From NCBI GenBank assembly GCA_045655765.1, contig JAZOQA010000057.1:1-56559 (forward strand): 56,559 bases of DNA, read 5' to 3'. Positions 12,801 to 56,346 of the stretch are shown here, piece after piece. Both the position numbers and the translations under genes were made by a program. This stretch comes from Eubacteriales bacterium. GTDB taxonomy: Bacteria > Bacillota > Clostridia > Oscillospirales > CAG-272. Numbering within the stretch: position 1 is the stretch's first letter; every line of letters starts with the position of its first letter. Under the pieces are notes generated by a model. It did not search any database, was not told where the DNA came from, and saw only the letters and a program-made list of their open reading frames with translations.

Positions 12801-13759
12801 CAGTAATGAACCGTTTCGTCAAGATTAAGAAGCTGAGAGAAGTTCTCAAAGCGTCTATTGAACTCATCACGTGCACCGGAGGTTACAAACTCGGTCTTCT
12901 CCTTATCAAGCTCAATAGTTCCCTTGCCCATTACGCTGGCTGCAAATTGATAAAGCTTTCCGTCACGGTAGGGAGATTTATTGTTGTCTACGTTCATACC
13001 GTATGCAAGAAGGTTCTTAAACGCTCTGTTTGCATTTCTGCCTGTATAATAGTCAAGCTGGCTTGCAGAGGTTGCCGTTTCAGGGCTGGTTGCCTCGGCA
13101 TCGTGCTTCTGGAAGAGCTTGTCGGCCTCAGCAATATAGTTCTCGAGAAGCGGAAGAACCAAACACTCCATATAACGATCCTGATGCATTGCACCGGGAA
13201 CAAGATATCTGAGTGTTGTATCACCGATGGTATAGCTTACACGAAGACCTCCGTTGATTGCAGACACGTAAATCTGTCCGTTGGTTGCGGCACCCGTAAA
13301 GCTGTCCATAGTAATAGGTGTTTCAGACGAGTTGGAAATTGAGTTGTACTCAAGCTCGATTTGGCTCACAAGAGTCGTCGTAGGGTTGGTAAGCTCACGG
13401 TAATCGTAGGGATTACTTGTAAGCACCTGCCCTGTCAGGTTGTTCTGATAATACATAAAGCCCGTATAGACGTTTACGTAAACAGAGTACATACCGTTTT
13501 TAGAGGTTGCTGACATAAGCTGTCCTGCAGCCTTCTCTGCTTCAAGCATCTGCTCCGCAGAGTTATACTTAAGCTGTTTTGCAAAAGTAAGTACGTTAAT
13601 GAAGTCTTCTTCATTTTTAGCATACATATTCGCTGCCGTTATAGAATCAGGCTTTTCTGCACTGTTAGCAGCAAATGCTAAAGTGGGGAATGCTACTATG
13701 ACCGCAGTTGAAAGCATAATCGCCGCAAGCAGCATAGATAATATTCTTTTAAATTTCAT
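9803..13759 (-). CDS. 1318-aa exported protein of unknown function. From memory it resembles DUF5696-type, possibly glycoside-hydrolase-like, proteins.
   Basis: Sec signal peptide (AFPTLAFA/ANS). Motifs FYPDGSG, MPVYG, FFAIIEEGAALA, LPLYIEVFG and LTGFANGGM. Has an AGGAGG RBS. I cannot name a catalytic signature. Confidence 0.8.
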   Translation of the reverse strand: MKFKRILSMLLAAIMLSTAVIVAFPTLAFAANSAEKPDSITAANMYAKNEEDFINVLTFAKQLKYNSAEQMLEAEKAAGQLMSATSKNGMYSVYVNVYTGFMYYQNNLTGQVLTSNPYDYRELTNPTTTLVSQIELEYNSISNSSETPITMDSFTGAATNGQIYVSAINGGLRVSYTIGDTTLRYLVPGAMHQDRYMECLVLPLLENYIAEADKLFQKHDAEATSPETATSASQLDYYTGRNANRAFKNLLAYGMNVDNNKSPYRDGKLYQFAASVMGKGTIELDKEKTEFVTSGARDEFNRRFENFSQLLNLDETVHYCRKHAVGEKVKTPNADGEYVCSTCGSVVEACTYAELLFYSDNGKLNVDAIGQYLSLIEYYIVKIFEYSNPMQDVYGAILEFTNSYKASTTGYNVICNISNTNYRVLAQTQEIIEKYCVYNDTPTYSFNDMYRDERECGYVHEFVARPVFRCALEYTFNEDGTLSVNLPANSITFDESTYILYSITPLKYFGASDLFYLDENPERPGTYNRNQKNPLDGYIFYPDGSGTIVSISDFYNGGIVSFKAPVYGIDHAYSDIIAITGDYREQVTMPVYGAVYTESVSPEMQELVGTSKLQNGFFAIIEEGAALAHLNFRFECTTSGFGTIYPVYRPYPSDTYDLSQTLSVSGLGEYTMVAETKYSGSFITKITMLTDERLNSIYGANYNASYSAMAECYRDYLIEDGTIEAFASLGNDLPLYIEVFGSMEILEKILSFPVEVSTALTTFENIRTMYDEFADATRLIREKAEYYRQEAKKTEKDLELKALYEQKAKEYDQLAEQITNITNINFRLTGFANGGMEYTYPSKVKWDKVVGGEDGFLALMNYANSVSAKQGSHLGIYPEFDFIYINNTAMFDGIYPNGISSKLIDNRYAEKQLYNSVTHSYESFLTRLVSPDALAELYVEFNDDYSEFGIKNISVSTLGSDINSNFDDENPINREEASEYISDILASMKKDGYDIMLDKGNAYSLEYASHIIDAYIDSNHLRYSSYAVPFLGMVLHGYVKYTGSALNYSGDPDYDILRSIENGASLYYILCYDNHHHMKEDENLNKYYGVSYENWFTNVVEQYSVINGAIGDLQNYKIVDHKILTVERVIGAEEKELVYTKLVNELISRAEEQIEQDIIAAYEDMNAKGEYGKGVKVEIDVDAIASQAGNLLNLTNNIQIDEKYANEIRASIVKRLELLEESFDEKYAASSDPYKISFNVLEEYTSEYNYLTDSKSTDGKNYVKTDYTVNNYNVVMVTYKNATTGHEVHFVLNYNIHSVIVDLGYGAFILGKYEFKRI

Positions 13760-50810: not shown

Positions 50811-51041
50811 CTCACGTCGGTTTTTAGAATAAATCAAACAAGTATGAACCGCTCTCTGTTCAAGTTGAATGGGGCTTTGAAGTGCTTAAGGAAGATTACG
50901 GCTTTAGTTATTTTTTGCCTCAATTTGAGGTTTTTTCTTTATATTCTATACTTTTCTTAAACCGCACAAAAAGAACTGACACAAACGCTCTAAAATTTGC
51001 ATTTGAGGCAGCCCCATTTGGTACAATATAAGCACAAAAGC

Positions 51042-51065
51042 GGAGACATCGTTTACAATGTCTCC
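51042..51065 (-). terminator. terminator at the end of the T-box operon
   Basis: 8-bp stem ggagacat / atgtctcc, with T-rich flanks on both strands. It lies 10 nt past the last ORF. Confidence 0.55.
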
Positions 51066-51074
51066 ACTCGTTTT

Positions 51075-51290
51075 TTATTCGGTTATCCCTAAATGAGAAA
51101 GCCACTTTCTAATTGCATCAGTAACGTCTATTAAAGCAAGGTCTGCGTTTTGATTGTACGCTTCGATTGAAATCTCAACCAATCCATTCCTTGCGTTTCT
51201 TTTAATCAGATTAGTTATTGTCGCCTTGCCCGAATTCAGATCATCAAAATACATAGTATTACCTACACGGGCACTTTTAGTGTCTTGCAA
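51075..51290 (-). CDS. hypothetical small protein (71 aa from TTG; 59 aa if it starts at ATG 51254)
   Basis: ORF directly after the amidohydrolase gene. It has a weak RBS and no recognisable domain. Confidence 0.3.
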   Translation of the reverse strand: MQDTKSARVGNTMYFDDLNSGKATITNLIKRNARNGLVEISIEAYNQNADLALIDVTDAIRKWLSHLGITE

Positions 51291-51300
51291 GCTTTCATAA

Positions 51301-52098
51301 TTATTTCAAAAACAACCTTACCGCATTATTGTAAAGTATATCCTCACGTTGCTCTTGCGTAAGATCTATTTGCATAAATCTTTCCAATTCGATTTCAGGC
51401 TTCCACAGTGGGTAGTCGGTTCCAAACAATACTCGCTCGGTTCCGTAAGCCAAGATAAGCTCCTTTGCTTTTGTTTTTGTCAATGCATACAGAGAGGATG
51501 AGGTGTCCACAAAAAAGCTTTTGAACTTGCTGAGCTTTTCTGTAGCCTCCTCCCAAACCGACCATCCGCCTAAATGTGCACCGACAACCGTTAAGTTAGG
51601 ATACTTTTTAAGTATAGGCATCATACGGTTGGGATTTGAAAAATCAAAACGAGAATCTCCCGTATGCATCAGAATGGGGAGGACATTTTCGCATCGCTCA
51701 TAAATTTTATACATACGAGGATCGTCTATTGCCACCTTTTGTATATCGGGGTGGAGCTTGACTCCTTTTAAGCCAAGCTCCAAAATTTCGTCAATCTCCG
51801 CATCAATATTATCACTGTCCGGATGAAGTGTTCCAAGTCCGGTAAACCGTCCGTTACTAAGTGCTACGGATTCTTTAATAAAATGATTGATGGCGGAAAC
51901 CTGCTTTGGGGTAGTTGCAACGGATTGAACGATAAAATGATTGACTCCTGCTTTCTCACCGTGTTCAAGCAGGGTGGATATTTTACCGTCAAGAAGCGAT
52001 GTCATATCGTAAAAGCTACCTGTTCCTGCGGCGGCCTTTTCTGCAATTTTATCGGGATAGATATGGCAGTGAGAATCAATTATTCTATATTTTTTCAC
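51301..52098 (-). CDS. amidohydrolase-2 family (TIM-barrel metal-dependent hydrolase/decarboxylase superfamily) protein
   Basis: N-terminal IIDSHCHIYP metal motif, plus LHPD, HTGD, AHLGG and FGTDYP. GTG start. Confidence 0.8.
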   Translation of the reverse strand: MKKYRIIDSHCHIYPDKIAEKAAAGTGSFYDMTSLLDGKISTLLEHGEKAGVNHFIVQSVATTPKQVSAINHFIKESVALSNGRFTGLGTLHPDSDNIDAEIDEILELGLKGVKLHPDIQKVAIDDPRMYKIYERCENVLPILMHTGDSRFDFSNPNRMMPILKKYPNLTVVGAHLGGWSVWEEATEKLSKFKSFFVDTSSSLYALTKTKAKELILAYGTERVLFGTDYPLWKPEIELERFMQIDLTQEQREDILYNNAVRLFLK

Positions 52099-52129: not shown

Positions 52130-54589
52130 TTATTTCTTCAGCCCCAATATATCCACAGCTTGCTCACGCATCTTGTATTTCAGAATCTTACCTGCGGCAT
52201 TCATAGGAAATTCCTTGACAAAGAGGAAGTATCTCGGAACCTTGTGTCTTGCGATAGATGCGTTTCCGAATTCTTTCATTTCGGCTTCGTCAGCGGTTTC
52301 ACCCTTGTTTAGAATTACCCAAGCACAGCATTCCTCGCCGTATCTTTCGTCAGGGACACCGACGACCTGAACATCACGAACCTTGGGATTGGTCAGATAA
52401 AATTCTTCGATTTCACGAGGATAGAGGTTTTCACCGCCTCTGATAATCATATCCTTAAGTCTACCTGTGACCTTATAATAGCCGTCCGGCGTTCTCATAC
52501 AAATATCGCCCGAATGAAGCCATCCCTCAGCATCGATTGTTTGAGCGGTTGCTTCGGGCATCTTGTAATAGCCTTACATAATGTTAAAGCCGCGTGCAAC
52601 GAACTCACCGCTTTCACCGTCGGGAAGCTCCTTGCCGGTTTCGGGATCAATAATCTTACATTCTACACCCGGGAATGCACTGCCGACCGTTTCAACTCGG
52701 TGGTCAAGGTCTTCGTTGACCTCACCCATAGTACAGCCGGGAGAAGCCTCGGTCTGCCCGTAAACCGAAATGATCTCGCGCATATTCATCTCAACCGACG
52801 CACGGCGCATCAAATCTGCCGGGCAGTTTGCACCCGCCATAATACCGGTTCTCATATATGAAAAATCAGTCTTTGCAAAATCGGGGTGGCTGAACATAGC
52901 GATAAACATCGTGGGAACACCGTTAAAGCAGGTGATGTGCTCGTCATTTATGCAGGCAAGCGAGGATTTGGGAGAGAAATACGGAATCGGACAAAGTGTA
53001 CCGCCGTGTGTCATTATAGAGGTCATAGAAAGCACCATTCCAAAGCAATGGAACATAGGCACTTGTATCATCATACGGTCTGCGGTGGACAGATCCATTC
53101 TGTCACCGATGGTCTTGCCGTTGTTTACGATATTTCGGTGGGTAAGCATAACTCCCTTGGGGAATCCCGTAGTACCCGAGGTGTACTGCATATTGCATAC
53201 GTCATCGGGCTTGACAAGAGAAGCACGTCTGCGTACTTCTTCACGGGGAACGATATTGGAACGGGAAAGCATCTGCTCCCAATTCAGGCATCCTTGCATA
53301 TCAAATCCAACGGTTACAACGTTACGGAGGAAAGGCAGATTTTTTGAATACAAAGGATTTCCCGGAGTAAGATTTTTAAGCTCGGGGCAAAGCTCTTCTA
53401 TAATTTCCCTGTAATTGATGTCCTTGCAATACTCGACCATAACGAGCGTATGGGTGTCGGATTGCTTGAGCAGGTATTCGATTTCGTGGATCTTATATGC
53501 GGTGTTAACCGTTACCAAAACCGCACCGATCTTAGTGGTTGCCCAGAAGGTGATATACCACGCCGGAACGTTGGTTGCCCAAATCGCAACGTGGTCACCC
53601 GCTTTTACACCCAAGGAAATAAGTGCGGCTGCACATTCGTCAACATCACGGCGGAACTGCTTGTAGGTTCTCGTATAATCAAGAGTAGGATATTTGAAAG
53701 CAAACTGATCGGGATACTTTTCAGCCATTGTATCAAGCACGTCAGAGAATGTTGCGTCGATAACGTCATACTTCTTCCAAACGAACGTGCCTGTTTTTGC
53801 ACGGTTGTAGTAAGCGTGCTCAAAGGTCCTTTTCTCACGGCTCAAAGCGGCAATATAATTTGTGAAGTGAGTCAGAACGATATCTGCATCGCTGATCTGC
53901 TCGTTCCAAGCGGCGCAAATGAAGCCTTCGTAGTTCAAAGATGAGAGTGCATTCAAGATCTTTTTTACTTCAAGGTCACCCTCACCGATCAACACGGTTT
54001 TTCCGTCCTTCATATCTCCAAGACGCACGTATTTGATGTAAGCTCCGAGGTTTTTAATTGTAGCTTCTGCAGTTTCACCCGCATTAAAGTACGTTCCTCT
54101 GACATTCCAGGATGCACCTACTGCGGAAGAAGCAAAATGATTGATAATCTTAATTACGTTTTCTGTATTGGAAAGATACCCAACCGTTTCAAACAAAATG
54201 TTGACATCGGAATTTTCTGCACGTTTAATAGCGGCAGACATTTTTCCGTCTAAAGTATCGAAGGAAAAATTGTTCTCGGCACGAACAATAACGTTGTCGA
54301 TTCCGGAGGTTGCTGCCATTTCAACGTATTTCTGAGTCAATTCGGCAGTCGTTTCATCACTTTCGATAGGGGCAGGCATACGCAGTGCGGAGACGGTGAG
54401 ATTTCTGTTGACAAGCTTTCTTTTGGCATCGGCAATACGCTCACGTCTTAAAATGCTGTCGTAATGAGCATTTCTCTCTCCGATAGCATCGAAGATTTCG
54501 AATCCCTCAAAGCCGTAGTCATAAGCATAACGGCAGGTATCAAGAAAGGAAGCACGGCTTACGTTCTTGGTGGAAAAAACAATTTTCAT
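52130..54589 (-). pseudogene. xylose-isomerase-like TIM barrel fused to an acyl/aryl-CoA (AMP-forming) ligase, interrupted by an in-frame TAA at 52574-52576
   Basis: Residues 1-250 look like an AP-endonuclease-2/sugar-phosphate-isomerase TIM barrel. The AMP-binding motifs follow (YTSGTTGFPKGVMLTHRN, GQTEASP). The reading frame continues [29 protein letters not shown]...GKILK into ORF 52130-52561 in the same frame. Confidence 0.8.
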
Positions 54590-54595
54590 TGTGCA

Positions 54596-55984
54596 TTACG
54601 CCTCCTCGAATACAATTTTATTGAGTGCGTTAATATATGCTCTGATGCTTGCGGCAATAATGTCGGTGGATGTTCCGTTGCCTGAATAGAGCTTACCGCC
54701 AACGCGCAGTCTGACAAGTGCAGAACCGAGAGCTTCCTTTCCTTCGGTCACAGACTGAACCTGATAATCATCAAGCTCGTAGTGATGACCGATGCACTGC
54801 TCGATAGCACGAAAAGCAGAGTCGATAGGACCGTCGCCTGCACTGACACCGCAAATTACCTCGTCATTCTTTTTCAAAACGATCTGTGTCATTGCACTGG
54901 AAATATTACTACTCGTTGTAGTATAGGCTTCAAAATGATAGGTGGAGGGAGCCTGCATTGCAGAGCTTGCGATCAGAGCCTCAAATTCCTTTGCTCCGAC
55001 AGTGCCCTTCTTTTCGCATACTTGATTAAGCGCTTTATACACGTTTCCAATATCCGAATCGGAAAGCTCATAACCGAGAATAGCAGCTGCTTCTGCAACT
55101 TGTGTCACGGTGGAATCGGTATCGAGAAGAATCTTTTTCTTTACGTTTACGGTGCTGTCCGCATCATAAGAATCGTGGCTGATGCTTGATACAATATCCT
55201 CGATGCTTGCGTGAATATTGGTATTATTCAACTTGATCTCAGCACCGATCTGTGCACCGCAGGCATTAACGGCATCAGAGAACTCGCCTGTCAAGAGGGC
55301 ATCCTTGCCGACCATAGCACATTTAATTCCGGCGGCACCTACGGCGATTACAGAAAAAGCAGAAGCAACTGCCATATTGATGCGGTCGGAAACCTGAACG
55401 TATACGGGAACGGAAACCTCCGCTTTCACCTTTGCGACGATTGCAGCAATCTGCTCGGGCGTTGATGTACCGGCATTATCGCAAAGCGTAATAATAGTTG
55501 CACCTTTGGCTTCAGCTTCTTTTGCGGAAGCAATAAGGAACTCTTCCTCTGCTCTTGTCGCATCCAATGCGGAAAATTCTACGTCAGAGCAAACCGCCTT
55601 TGCTGCCGCAACCAGCTCTCCGATTTTTTCAAGCATTGCCGATTGCTTGACGTGATAGTTATATTCCATTTGAATGGTAGATACGGGAAGCTCTACCTGA
55701 AGGCGAGGTGCCTTGGCATCTTTAATGCACTCCCAAGCAACGCTTACCCCGTCTTGAGCAAAGCCTACAGGAATTGCCAATGTGGCGTTTTGAACGTTCT
55801 TGGCGATGGTCTTGTATATAATAAAATCCTCACGGATGTTCTTTACCGAGGGAAGCTCGATAGAGTCGACGCCGAGTCGGTCTGCACAATTAGCAATAGC
55901 TGATTTTTCGCGGAACAGCAGAGATACTGCACGATCCTCCGAAAGCTTTTTGAGTGTGATATCTGAAATGTTGATTTTTCTCAT
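54596..55984 (-). CDS. 2-isopropylmalate-synthase-like protein with degenerate catalytic motifs and an intact LeuA-type C-terminal regulatory domain
   Basis: Collinear with LeuA. However, DTTLRDGEQ reads DITLKKLSED and HxH reads QVS. The C-terminal GDGPIDSAFRAIE...GKEALGSALVRLRVGGKLYSGNGTSTDIIAASIRAYINALNKI is well conserved. Has an AAGGAG RBS. Confidence 0.8.
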   Translation of the reverse strand: MRKINISDITLKKLSEDRAVSLLFREKSAIANCADRLGVDSIELPSVKNIREDFIIYKTIAKNVQNATLAIPVGFAQDGVSVAWECIKDAKAPRLQVELPVSTIQMEYNYHVKQSAMLEKIGELVAAAKAVCSDVEFSALDATRAEEEFLIASAKEAEAKGATIITLCDNAGTSTPEQIAAIVAKVKAEVSVPVYVQVSDRINMAVASAFSVIAVGAAGIKCAMVGKDALLTGEFSDAVNACGAQIGAEIKLNNTNIHASIEDIVSSISHDSYDADSTVNVKKKILLDTDSTVTQVAEAAAILGYELSDSDIGNVYKALNQVCEKKGTVGAKEFEALIASSAMQAPSTYHFEAYTTTSSNISSAMTQIVLKKNDEVICGVSAGDGPIDSAFRAIEQCIGHHYELDDYQVQSVTEGKEALGSALVRLRVGGKLYSGNGTSTDIIAASIRAYINALNKIVFEEA

Positions 55985-56032: not shown

Positions 56033-56310
56033 AACAAAAATACGCTTCCATCTCTTTGTTGATTGCAAAGAGACGAAAACGCTAAATATTATGTTTCCGC
56101 GGTACCACTCTTCTTCATCCAAAACAGGATGCACTTTAGATGCTATCACATCTTAACTCTGTTACGGGAGTTCCCGATTGCCACTATTCCGAGTTTTCAT
56201 AGCAACCGCTCAACGGTGAGTTCAACAAAACTCCTTCTATGCCTCGCACCAACCGGCAACTCTCTGAAAGGGGAAATTTTGCATACTATTCCGCATCATT
56301 GCGTTTTTGA
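56033..56310 (-). promoter_or_regulatory. T-box riboswitch leader, leucine (CUC) specifier
   Basis: Minus-strand elements, in order. K-turn: AAUGAUG...UUGA. Specifier loop: AGUA ... GAA-CUC-A (codon at 56220-56218). AG bulge plus distal loop: CAGAGAG-uugcc-GGUUGGUGCGA. T-box sequence: AGAGUGGUACCGCGG (56112-56098). A 16-bp terminator (56081-56043) followed by UAUUUUU. Confidence 0.88.
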
Positions 56311-56317
56311 TGCAAAC

Positions 56318-56346
56318 ATTTTATCATATGGCATACCTTTTGTCAA
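56318..56346 (-). promoter_or_regulatory. sigma-A promoter of the T-box operon
   Basis: On the minus strand: TTGACA (56346-56341), 17 nt, TAAAAT (56323-56318). Confidence 0.6.

Follow-up and report, generated by a model that had tools for sequence, protein, structure and literature searches.

Why should a bacterium keep, behind a leucine T-box leader, an intact gene for a 2-isopropylmalate synthase (LeuA)-like protein from which the catalytic residues have disappeared? The question is raised by a 56,559-nucleotide contig (JAZOQA010000057.1, assembly GCA_045655765.1) of Eubacteriales bacterium (GTDB lineage Clostridia; Oscillospirales; CAG-272), the whole of which is called the window below. 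The gene lies at positions 54596–55984 on the minus strand. A model reading the sequence alone (the original prediction) had described it as a LeuA paralogue with replaced catalytic motifs, a well-conserved regulatory domain, and a strong ribosome-binding site, and had offered two interpretations, a protein repurposed for leucine sensing or scaffolding and an enzyme of different chemistry. The answer we favor, at a probability of about one-half, is that the protein is a pseudoenzyme acting as the leucine sensor of an acyl-CoA ligase that activates isovalerate in a reductive-carboxylation route to leucine.

The gene is, as described, an intact open reading frame (ORF) of 462 amino acids with an ATG start and an AAAGGAG ribosome-binding site 7 nt upstream. 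Its product shares the order of barrel, linker, and LeuA_dimer domain with the short form of LeuA (TIGR00973/PRK00915; E. coli b0074; structures 3ewb and 3rmj; M. tuberculosis 1sr9/3fig), although it is about 25% identical to the E. coli enzyme and about 45 residues shorter. The HMGL-like TIM barrel (residues 1–230; 55295–55984, minus strand; PF00682, residues 4–226, 103 bits) is without metal ligands, substrate Arg, and catalytic Glu. It is followed on the same strand by a shortened linker (residues 231–330; 54995–55294), in which subdomain I (HxSGIHxDG) has been deleted and subdomain II kept, and by the LeuA allosteric and dimerization domain (residues 331–462 plus the stop codon; 54596–54994; PF08502, residues 331–457, 105 bits).

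Alignments of the barrel with those of 3ewb and 3rmj (HMMER) and with E. coli LeuA (MAFFT) placed DITLKKLSED (residue 8), EFSALDATR (136), CDNAGT (168), QVSDRIN (197), and VGKDALLTG (225) opposite DTTLRDGEQ, EFSxEDAxR, PDTVGY, HxHDDLG, and NGIGERAGN, respectively; every string cited in the original prediction is present and sits opposite the LeuA motif with which it had been paired by eye. Relative to E. coli LeuA, the N-terminal motif carries R13→K12, D14→K13, E16→S15, and Q17→E16, and the remainder of the barrel carries H106→Q105, E141→L140, T171→N170, H202→Q197, and H204→S199. Neither the metal-binding Asp of the RD pair nor the His-x-His is kept (K13, Q197, and S199 in their places), the substrate Arg (R13) has become Lys, the catalytic Glu of the ED pair (E141) has become Leu, and the NGxGERAGN loop is four residues shorter. 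With the catalytic residues mapped in the profile alignment, Arg, Asp, and His-x-His are truly replaced. Two further losses had gone unmentioned: the S-P-x-H motif has Gln in place of its active-site His, and the entire HxSGIHxDG block is deleted, as it is in all 106 family representatives described below. The LeuA-like protein also fell far under the NCBIfam cutoffs of the LeuA, citramalate synthase, and homocitrate synthase equivalogs (best 240 vs 532 bits; 216 vs 599 bits for TIGR00973). Given these catalytic features and the failed curated cutoffs, it should not be annotated as 2-isopropylmalate synthase, and to judge from its residues it almost certainly cannot perform the LeuA reaction.

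The C-terminal domain presents a different picture. The motifs GDGPID (within GDGPIDSAFR, residue 383), HYELDD, GKEALG, STDII, and NALNKI are all kept, and G420 occupies the position of E. coli G462 in the MAFFT alignment. The change G462D disrupts allosteric feedback in E. coli LeuA (PMC6345581); this residue was used as the marker of the regulatory site, and sequence searches did not align the regulatory domains of 1sr9 and 3fig. With GDGPID, GKEALG, STDII, and the G462 equivalent retained, the domain may bind leucine. The protein appears, from its sequence, to derive from a bacterial 2-isopropylmalate synthase that kept the fold and the leucine-binding and dimerization domain and lost metal binding and Claisen condensation.

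Structure prediction pointed the same way. An AlphaFold2 (AF2) model built from a 45-sequence family alignment had a mean predicted local distance difference test score (pLDDT) of 89, and residues 270–283, at the former site of subdomain I, were the only disordered stretch (pLDDT < 50). The top Foldseek matches in the PDB were full-length M. tuberculosis LeuA structures, 3hpz and 3fig (leucine-bound form), with E values of about 1e-22 to 3e-22, and the modeled barrel superposed on that of Listeria LeuA (3ewb) with a root-mean-square deviation of 1.7 Å and a TM score of 0.91. The predicted fold is that of LeuA, and the metal-ligand positions within it are substituted. Eight barrel residues are invariant in the family (D8, S102, E107, Y108, K113, E136, D141, and D169), of which D8, S102, E136, D141, and D169 occupy the C-terminal tips of β-strands or the positions directly beyond them, on the old active-site face. 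These residues are essentially a subset of those that intact LeuAs keep, and no new invariant polar or catalytic constellation was seen in the barrel in the family alignment or the AF2 model.

The window's gene is not an isolated case. A word-indexed search retrieved at least 120 homologues at 78–100% identity, nearly all exactly 462 aa long, from metagenome-assembled genomes (MAGs) of gut and rumen Clostridia; the listed homologues carry the name "hypothetical protein" or "2-isopropylmalate synthase". When 1.84 billion cluster representatives (50% identity clusters) were searched exhaustively with phmmer, 277 matches had E < 1e-30, more than 100 of them full-length representatives of 453–489 aa at 31–50% identity, and intact LeuAs of 500–516 aa appeared in the list only from about 205 bits downward. 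The family with catalytic loss occurs in Clostridia of the gut and rumen and in a small number of Spirochaetales. Among 106 cluster representatives, the metal ligands are kept in 8% (D14), 2% (H202), and 1% (H204), H106 is kept in none, and GERAGN is deleted in most, whereas the regulatory residues G425, G427, and D483 (E. coli numbering) are kept in 100% and G462 in 99%. Retention of the regulatory motifs at 92–100% agrees with the earlier description of this domain as well conserved. In a maximum-likelihood tree, which was unrooted and built with a quick method, intact and near-intact LeuAs (about 500–523 aa) formed one clade (SH-aLRT support of 100) with the family beyond that branch, an arrangement that fits a single origin.

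Two other kinds of sequence came up beside the family. Three LeuA paralogues of normal length (P0243, P0257, and P0266; 500–516 aa) show partial motif loss (DSTLCEGE with HSQNDLG; RAYNDLG with TGIGKRAGC; loss of HxSGIH with HxH kept); they cluster with true LeuA in the tree and may represent intermediates or cases of independent degeneration. In five other proteins (P0238, P0244, P0246, P0247, and P0248), a LeuA_dimer domain, 55–59% identical to the window's protein, is joined to fragments of unrelated domains, namely MFS, TGT, response-regulator receiver, and 7TMR-HDED. Modular reuse of the sensor domain (MFS in P0238, TGT in P0244, receiver in P0246, and 7TMR in P0248) was considered and rejected, the N-terminal parts being mere domain fragments. 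Such gene calls probably reflect chimeric or partial assembly brought about by the strongly conserved DNA of the regulatory domain.

Selection on the gene was measured across 76 orthologue pairs with synonymous divergence (dS) of 0.05–1.2. The ratio of nonsynonymous to synonymous substitution rates (dN/dS, ω; Nei-Gojobori) was 0.077 overall, with 0.10 in the barrel, 0.10 in the linker, and 0.017 in the regulatory domain, so that every domain is under purifying selection and constraint on the regulatory domain exceeds that on the barrel about sixfold. Consistent with this, 57% of the columns of the regulatory domain and 19% of those of the barrel are invariant in 120 close homologues, and none of 85 orthologues has an in-frame stop. 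These data indicate that the gene is functional, that the sensor domain is its most constrained part, and that the barrel is not drifting freely either. Homology to an enzyme, loss of catalytic residues, purifying selection, and wide conservation are features expected of a pseudoenzyme.

Expression of the gene is tied to leucine by its leader. Upstream of it on the minus strand, the window holds, in order, a promoter-like site at 56318–56346 (TTGACA, a 17-nt spacer, and a TG-extended TAAAAT; 11 of 12 positions match, and the call rests on the consensus match), a T-box leader at 56066–56308 (RF00230, 123 bits against a gathering threshold of 93, E 9e-28), a terminator, the ribosome-binding site, and the LeuA-like gene. 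The leader carries the Leu specifier GAA-CUC-A and the T-box sequence UGGUACCGCG, whose UGGU pairs with the NCCA end of tRNA. Its terminator hairpin at 56042–56082, a 17-pair stem followed by the T-run ATTTTTGTTG, overlaps the 3′ end of the Rfam match. A census of T-boxes over all loci collected for this work gave 120 leaders, the specifiers of which were read from the T-box core motif, per-gene-class MAFFT alignments, and Rfam spot checks; a home-made Stem I covariance model (alignment A3) was dropped because its 3′ part aligned poorly. The LeuA-like gene is preceded by 67 of these leaders, and the specifier column reads CTC in 65 of them, CTG in one, and CCC in one. The earlier statement that the gene is the first behind a Leu T-box holds for the window and most relatives; in some relatives (L001–L003), MaoC and ACT–metallo-β-lactamase genes come first.

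What the LeuA-like protein might serve is suggested by the gene that follows it. Directly downstream on the same strand, an 819-codon gene (52130–54589) encodes a fusion of a sugar-epimerase-like (xylose-isomerase-like) TIM barrel (residues about 1–250) with an AMP-forming acyl-CoA ligase (287–819); a single in-frame TAA, discussed below, makes it read as 671 + 143 aa. The two genes are separated by 6 nt (LeuA-like stop codon TAA at 54596–54598, ligase ATG at 54587–54589), and the ligase Shine-Dalgarno, GAGGAGG, as read from the sequence, is formed by the three codons that precede the LeuA-like stop (E-E-A; GAGGAGGCG, 54599–54607, minus strand). A Shine-Dalgarno inside the upstream gene fits translational coupling, and the two genes are probably coupled in this way. 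The arrangement is general. The loci examined were 80 from species-representative genomes together with others retrieved by identity, and in all 82 distinct loci the ligase gene lies directly 3′ of the LeuA-like gene; the median spacing is +2 nt, many of the gene pairs overlap, and the pairing persists down to 34–40% identity to the LeuA-like protein (L085 and L086). The ligase half is complete and highly conserved: across 67 orthologues, 57% of its columns are invariant and the P-loop, GWLHSGD, GRLKD, and catalytic-Lys motifs are all intact. The window's fusion aligns over residues 1–819 with the intact orthologue of L001 in a single tblastn high-scoring segment pair (88.9% identity). The original prediction had raised an interaction with the downstream ligase; at the level of the genes, this link is the strongest result of the analysis, and we consider it very probable that the two proteins work together.

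Such pairing would also be expected if the LeuA-like protein were an obligatory structural or activating partner in the manner of MbtH, stabilizing the ligase, shaping it, or tethering it to an oxidoreductase, with no leucine sensing and with the regulatory domain kept for dimerization alone. The invariable gene order and the apparent translational coupling suit this explanation, LeuA_dimer is, as its Pfam name says, also a dimerization domain, and control by leucine is already supplied by the T-box. Dimerization alone does not, however, account for the almost complete conservation of the GDGPID loop and the G462 equivalent or for an ω of 0.017, and we regard a purely structural role as unlikely.

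The N-terminal barrel of the ligase fusion (53840–54589, minus strand) adds a second suspect active site. Its AF2 model (pLDDT 90) is closest to UlaE and ketose 3-epimerases. In the deep-branching L085 and L086, four positions read E/D/H/E, which we presume to be the metal ligands of UlaE and the ketose 3-epimerases, whereas the clade of the window has E/N/R/A (alignment A5), with three of the four lost. In this clade, then, the LeuA-like barrel and the fusion barrel both look catalytically degenerate, and the latter may be a second dead barrel. Two degenerate barrels fit a docking role without proving one.

Evidence on the pathway comes from the other T-boxes in the census. Leaders with AUC (Ile, 23 cases) or GUA (Val, 16 cases) specifiers precede fusions of about 760 aa that combine helix-turn-helix (HTH), cupin, and AMP-ligase domains (for example, L042 12858–15480; L053 3200–5830 and 10997–13620; also L007, L010, L012, and L021). 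The best NCBIfam match of these HTH-cupin ligases is the branched-chain acyl-CoA synthetase MbcS, and those behind Val T-boxes form one clade in the ligase tree. Four leaders with UUC (Phe) precede a PaaK-like phenylacetate-CoA ligase (L042 6404–8479; L015, L029, and L047; TIGR02155, 534 bits against a cutoff of 646), which is then followed by a 143-aa protein weakly similar to the ACT small subunit of acetolactate synthase; by analogy, this ligase and the ACT-like protein may be the Phe counterpart of the Leu pair. The other ten leaders comprise nine without an assigned downstream gene and one before MaoC at the head of an operon (L001). VorB (553 bits) and IlvE (512 bits), each above its cutoff, recur near the LeuA-like/ligase pair together with other Vor subunits and ferredoxin, and in L085 and L086, Vor and IlvE lie in one same-strand, closely spaced run of genes with the pair. 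Across 1.36 Mb, comprising the window and all loci, tblastn with E. coli queries found no LeuB, LeuC, LeuD, or true LeuA, a negative that does not extend to the remainder of these genomes; unlike leuA, the LeuA-like gene is never beside leuBCD in these neighborhoods and always beside a CoA ligase.

In this pattern, each amino acid has an acid-activating ligase of its own, which lies behind the cognate T-box and beside the oxidoreductase and transaminase required for converting an acyl-CoA into an amino acid. It matches the reductive-carboxylation routes of the rumen, among which a parallel route leads from 2-methylbutyrate to isoleucine. Carboxylation of isovalerate to leucine is established in the rumen (Allison 1962 and 1966, as cited in PMC7356843) and has been known physiologically since the 1960s; the routes from isobutyrate to valine and from phenylacetate to phenylalanine are likewise credited to Allison and co-workers in PMC7356843. 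We consider it fairly probable that the LeuA-like/ligase pair serves the supply of leucine from a branched acid. Two additional observations were made in these loci. A protein of about 222 aa, weakly similar to CbiA/ParA, lies between ligase or IlvE genes and Vor genes in 21 loci (for example, L068 20188–20856, L085 10664–11335, and L086 4480–5142) and may be a maturation or accessory factor of the oxidoreductase. L072 (13517–13593) and L042 (3921–4012) also gave Rfam matches, to a Gut-1 RNA at 79 bits and to a glycine riboswitch at 60 bits, neither of which is connected with the LeuA-like pair.

The same neighborhoods leave a small place for a leucine sensor that acts on something other than the ligase, be it the oxidoreductase, IlvE, or transcription. 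VorBAC and IlvE are recurrent neighbors, and the Ile and Val ligases carry HTH-cupin modules of their own. Only the ligase is invariably adjacent, though, Vor and IlvE being present in a minority of loci (13–17 of 81), and a Pfam scan found no DNA-binding domain in the LeuA-like protein. Another target is accordingly improbable.

The mechanism that we propose runs as follows. Under leucine limitation, uncharged tRNA-Leu would open the Leu (CUC) T-box, and the LeuA-like protein and the ligase would be co-transcribed and produced in a coupled fashion. The ligase would spend ATP to convert isovalerate into isovaleryl-CoA, which a VOR-type 2-oxoacid:ferredoxin oxidoreductase (VOR) would reductively carboxylate to 2-oxoisocaproate for transamination to leucine by IlvE. 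The LeuA-like protein, dimerized through its C-terminal domain, would bind the ligase, perhaps barrel to barrel, and leucine in the regulatory domain would exert fast feedback inhibition on the ATP-consuming step, a role mirroring that of the same domain in true LeuA. The salvage route would thereby have two tiers of control like the de novo route, at the level of RNA and by allostery at the committed step, with the sensor taken from the very enzyme whose pathway the salvage route replaces. We infer leucine binding, a physical complex, inhibition, and isovalerate as the substrate; that the LeuA-like protein acts on the ligase as its leucine sensor is, in our estimate, an even bet. More tentatively, the pair could be the leucine-feedback-regulated entry enzyme of isovalerate carboxylation and one arm of a modular set for Leu, Ile, Val, and Phe, each arm having its own ligase, T-box, and sensor; the sensor modules would then be a dead LeuA (Leu), HTH-cupin domains (Ile and Val), and an ACT protein (Phe). 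We hold this broader scheme to be somewhat doubtful.

Several observations weigh against a leucine-sensing pseudoenzyme attached to an isovalerate ligase. The partner ligase belongs to the FadD13/MatB/PRK12583 group and not to that of Acs and MbcS, so homology gives no pointer to isovalerate. Eight divergent loci (L051, L060, L061, L072, L074, L079, L080, and L084) are without a T-box. Some operons contain Amidohydro_2 (25 loci, where it lies 3′ of the ligase), MaoC, or ACT–metallo-β-lactamase genes, which a simple isovalerate route does not need and which hint at more chemistry. The ω of 0.10 in the LeuA-like barrel and the conserved residues on its old active-site face leave room for a ligand-binding or catalytic role. 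Finally, the ligase reading frame of the window carries a stop codon.

This last point could be taken to mean that the LeuA-like gene is a functionless, decaying relic of leuA. The stop is the single interruption of the ligase frame, a TAA at 52574–52576 (minus strand) at the conserved Lys of NIMKGYYKMPEAT (NIMKGYYK). Among 87 ligase records, only the window and L043 (codons 676 and 697; 13416–13418 and 13479–13481) have in-frame stops; the three stops span 26 codons, and all discrepant bases are A↔T. At the window's site, the whole contig depth of four public runs gives Lys (AAA), none of these runs being demonstrably from the window's strain, and at the L043 sites all depth in public-run contigs gives Lys or Cys, even in contigs otherwise identical to L043. 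The stretch that bears the stops is shared at high depth by many co-resident species. The stops are likely assembly or sequencing artifacts or very recent private mutations rather than old decay, and decay of the operon on account of the ligase TAA was rejected as no public contig supports the stop.

Decay has left a trace further downstream. On the minus strand, the ligase gene is followed by a gene for a 265-aa Amidohydro_2 protein (51301–52098; PF04909, 121 bits, N-terminal HxH present) and then by a MaoC-like dehydratase remnant (51105–51254, within an ORF at 51075–51290) that corresponds to residues 90–139 of about 146 and is 64–66% identical to the MaoC proteins of L001 and L006 by tblastn. 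Its N-terminal half was not found in any frame of the window by tblastn, and the remnant is a real structural relic of a deletion. An intrinsic terminator-like hairpin (51038–51069, minus strand), a 14-pair stem followed by TTGTGCTTAT, closes the operon. Intact MaoC genes are present in the matching operon of L001–L003 and L006. The ACT–metallo-β-lactamase protein (478 aa, no NCBIfam match; L001 1638–3074 and L053 13653–15089) is encoded within the Leu T-box operon in L001–L003 and after an Ile T-box ligase in L053.

A relic would account for the loss of all catalytic motifs in the LeuA-like protein, the stop in the neighboring ligase, and the truncated MaoC. It does not account for constant length across more than 100 clusters at 50% identity, an overall ω of 0.077 without a single stop in 85 orthologues, or an intact promoter, T-box, and ribosome-binding site, and the ligase stop itself has no support in public contigs. 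The claim of the original prediction that the gene is not decayed is thus upheld, with ω values of 0.10, 0.10, and 0.017 across the three domains, and we give the relic explanation almost no credence.

More substance attaches to the idea that the LeuA-like protein is an enzyme with new, metal-independent chemistry on an unrecognized route to a leucine precursor, working with the fusion barrel, Amidohydro_2, and MaoC, and that the regulatory domain feedback-inhibits this new activity. The constraint on the barrel and the placement of D8, S102, E136, D141, and D169 at strand ends speak for it, as do the accessory enzymes inside the Leu T-box operon and the E/D/H/E set retained in the epimerase-like barrel of L085 and L086. 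Yet what the barrel conserves is a subset of what true LeuA conserves and includes no new polar constellation, the replaced metal-ligand positions vary across the family (with E, Q, S, C, or R in place of H202, for example), subdomain I on the acetyl-CoA side is deleted, and the epimerase-like barrel has itself lost most of its presumed metal ligands in the window's clade. We rate new chemistry as unlikely, slightly more so than a structural role. As for the alternatives left by the original prediction, the gene is retained by selection and is tied to the ligase; between a repurposed sensor or scaffold and an enzyme of new chemistry, the evidence leans to a sensor because the barrel keeps only residues shared with LeuA while the regulatory domain is so much more constrained.

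A leucine sensor of this kind has precedents. HisZ is a dead paralogue of HisRS that serves as the histidine-sensing regulatory subunit of the short-form ATP phosphoribosyltransferase HisG. It, too, is a paralogue of an enzyme from the metabolism of the matching amino acid that lost catalysis, kept amino-acid binding, and became an allosteric subunit, but its fold and partner are different, and its complex and inhibition have been shown experimentally, whereas here both are what we infer. IlvN/IlvH, the ACT small subunit of acetohydroxyacid synthase, is likewise a separate amino-acid-binding subunit encoded beside the catalytic subunit of a committed step; its sensor fold is ACT instead of the LeuA regulatory domain, and IlvN is not derived from an enzyme. 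Within the present loci, the 143-aa ACT-like protein after the Phe-T-box PaaK-like ligase parallels the LeuA-like/ligase arrangement.

For the ligase, the nearest functional comparison is S. aureus MbcS, which uses ATP and CoA to activate short, branched carboxylic acids (PMC10026030, PMC11167679). The LeuA-partnered ligase is from a different ANL subgroup (PRK12583, FadD13/MatB-like) and has a TIM barrel at its N terminus, and MbcS feeds fatty-acid synthesis, not amino-acid synthesis. Plant methylthioalkylmalate synthase (6e1j), a Foldseek match of the LeuA-like protein, is another derivative of 2-isopropylmalate synthase in which one half has been discarded. It is the mirror case, having kept catalysis and no regulatory domain, and the LeuA-like family is the reverse, probably a pseudoenzyme serving as a regulatory subunit.

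A literature search found no paper describing the LeuA-like family, linking isopropylmalate synthase with a pseudoenzyme or a T-box with an isovalerate ligase, or assigning a gene to the isovalerate-activation step of the rumen route. If the proposal is true, the family would provide the first instance of a biosynthetic enzyme lending its allosteric half, still attached to a dead catalytic body, to the control in trans of the salvage route that replaces the enzyme's own pathway, and a new example of pseudoenzyme origin through retention of an allosteric domain. Branched-chain volatile fatty acids, classic growth factors for the fiber-degrading Clostridia of rumen and gut, also serve as feed additives, and the genes and control logic by which such acids are converted into amino acids are poorly defined. 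An erroneous "2-isopropylmalate synthase" label would lead metabolic reconstructions to score these MAGs as capable of starting de novo leucine synthesis. The T-box-to-ligase pattern instead gives candidate genes for the entry steps from isovalerate, 2-methylbutyrate, isobutyrate, and phenylacetate, and the pair of dead LeuA and ligase would offer a marker of amino-acid salvage capacity in gut metagenomes.

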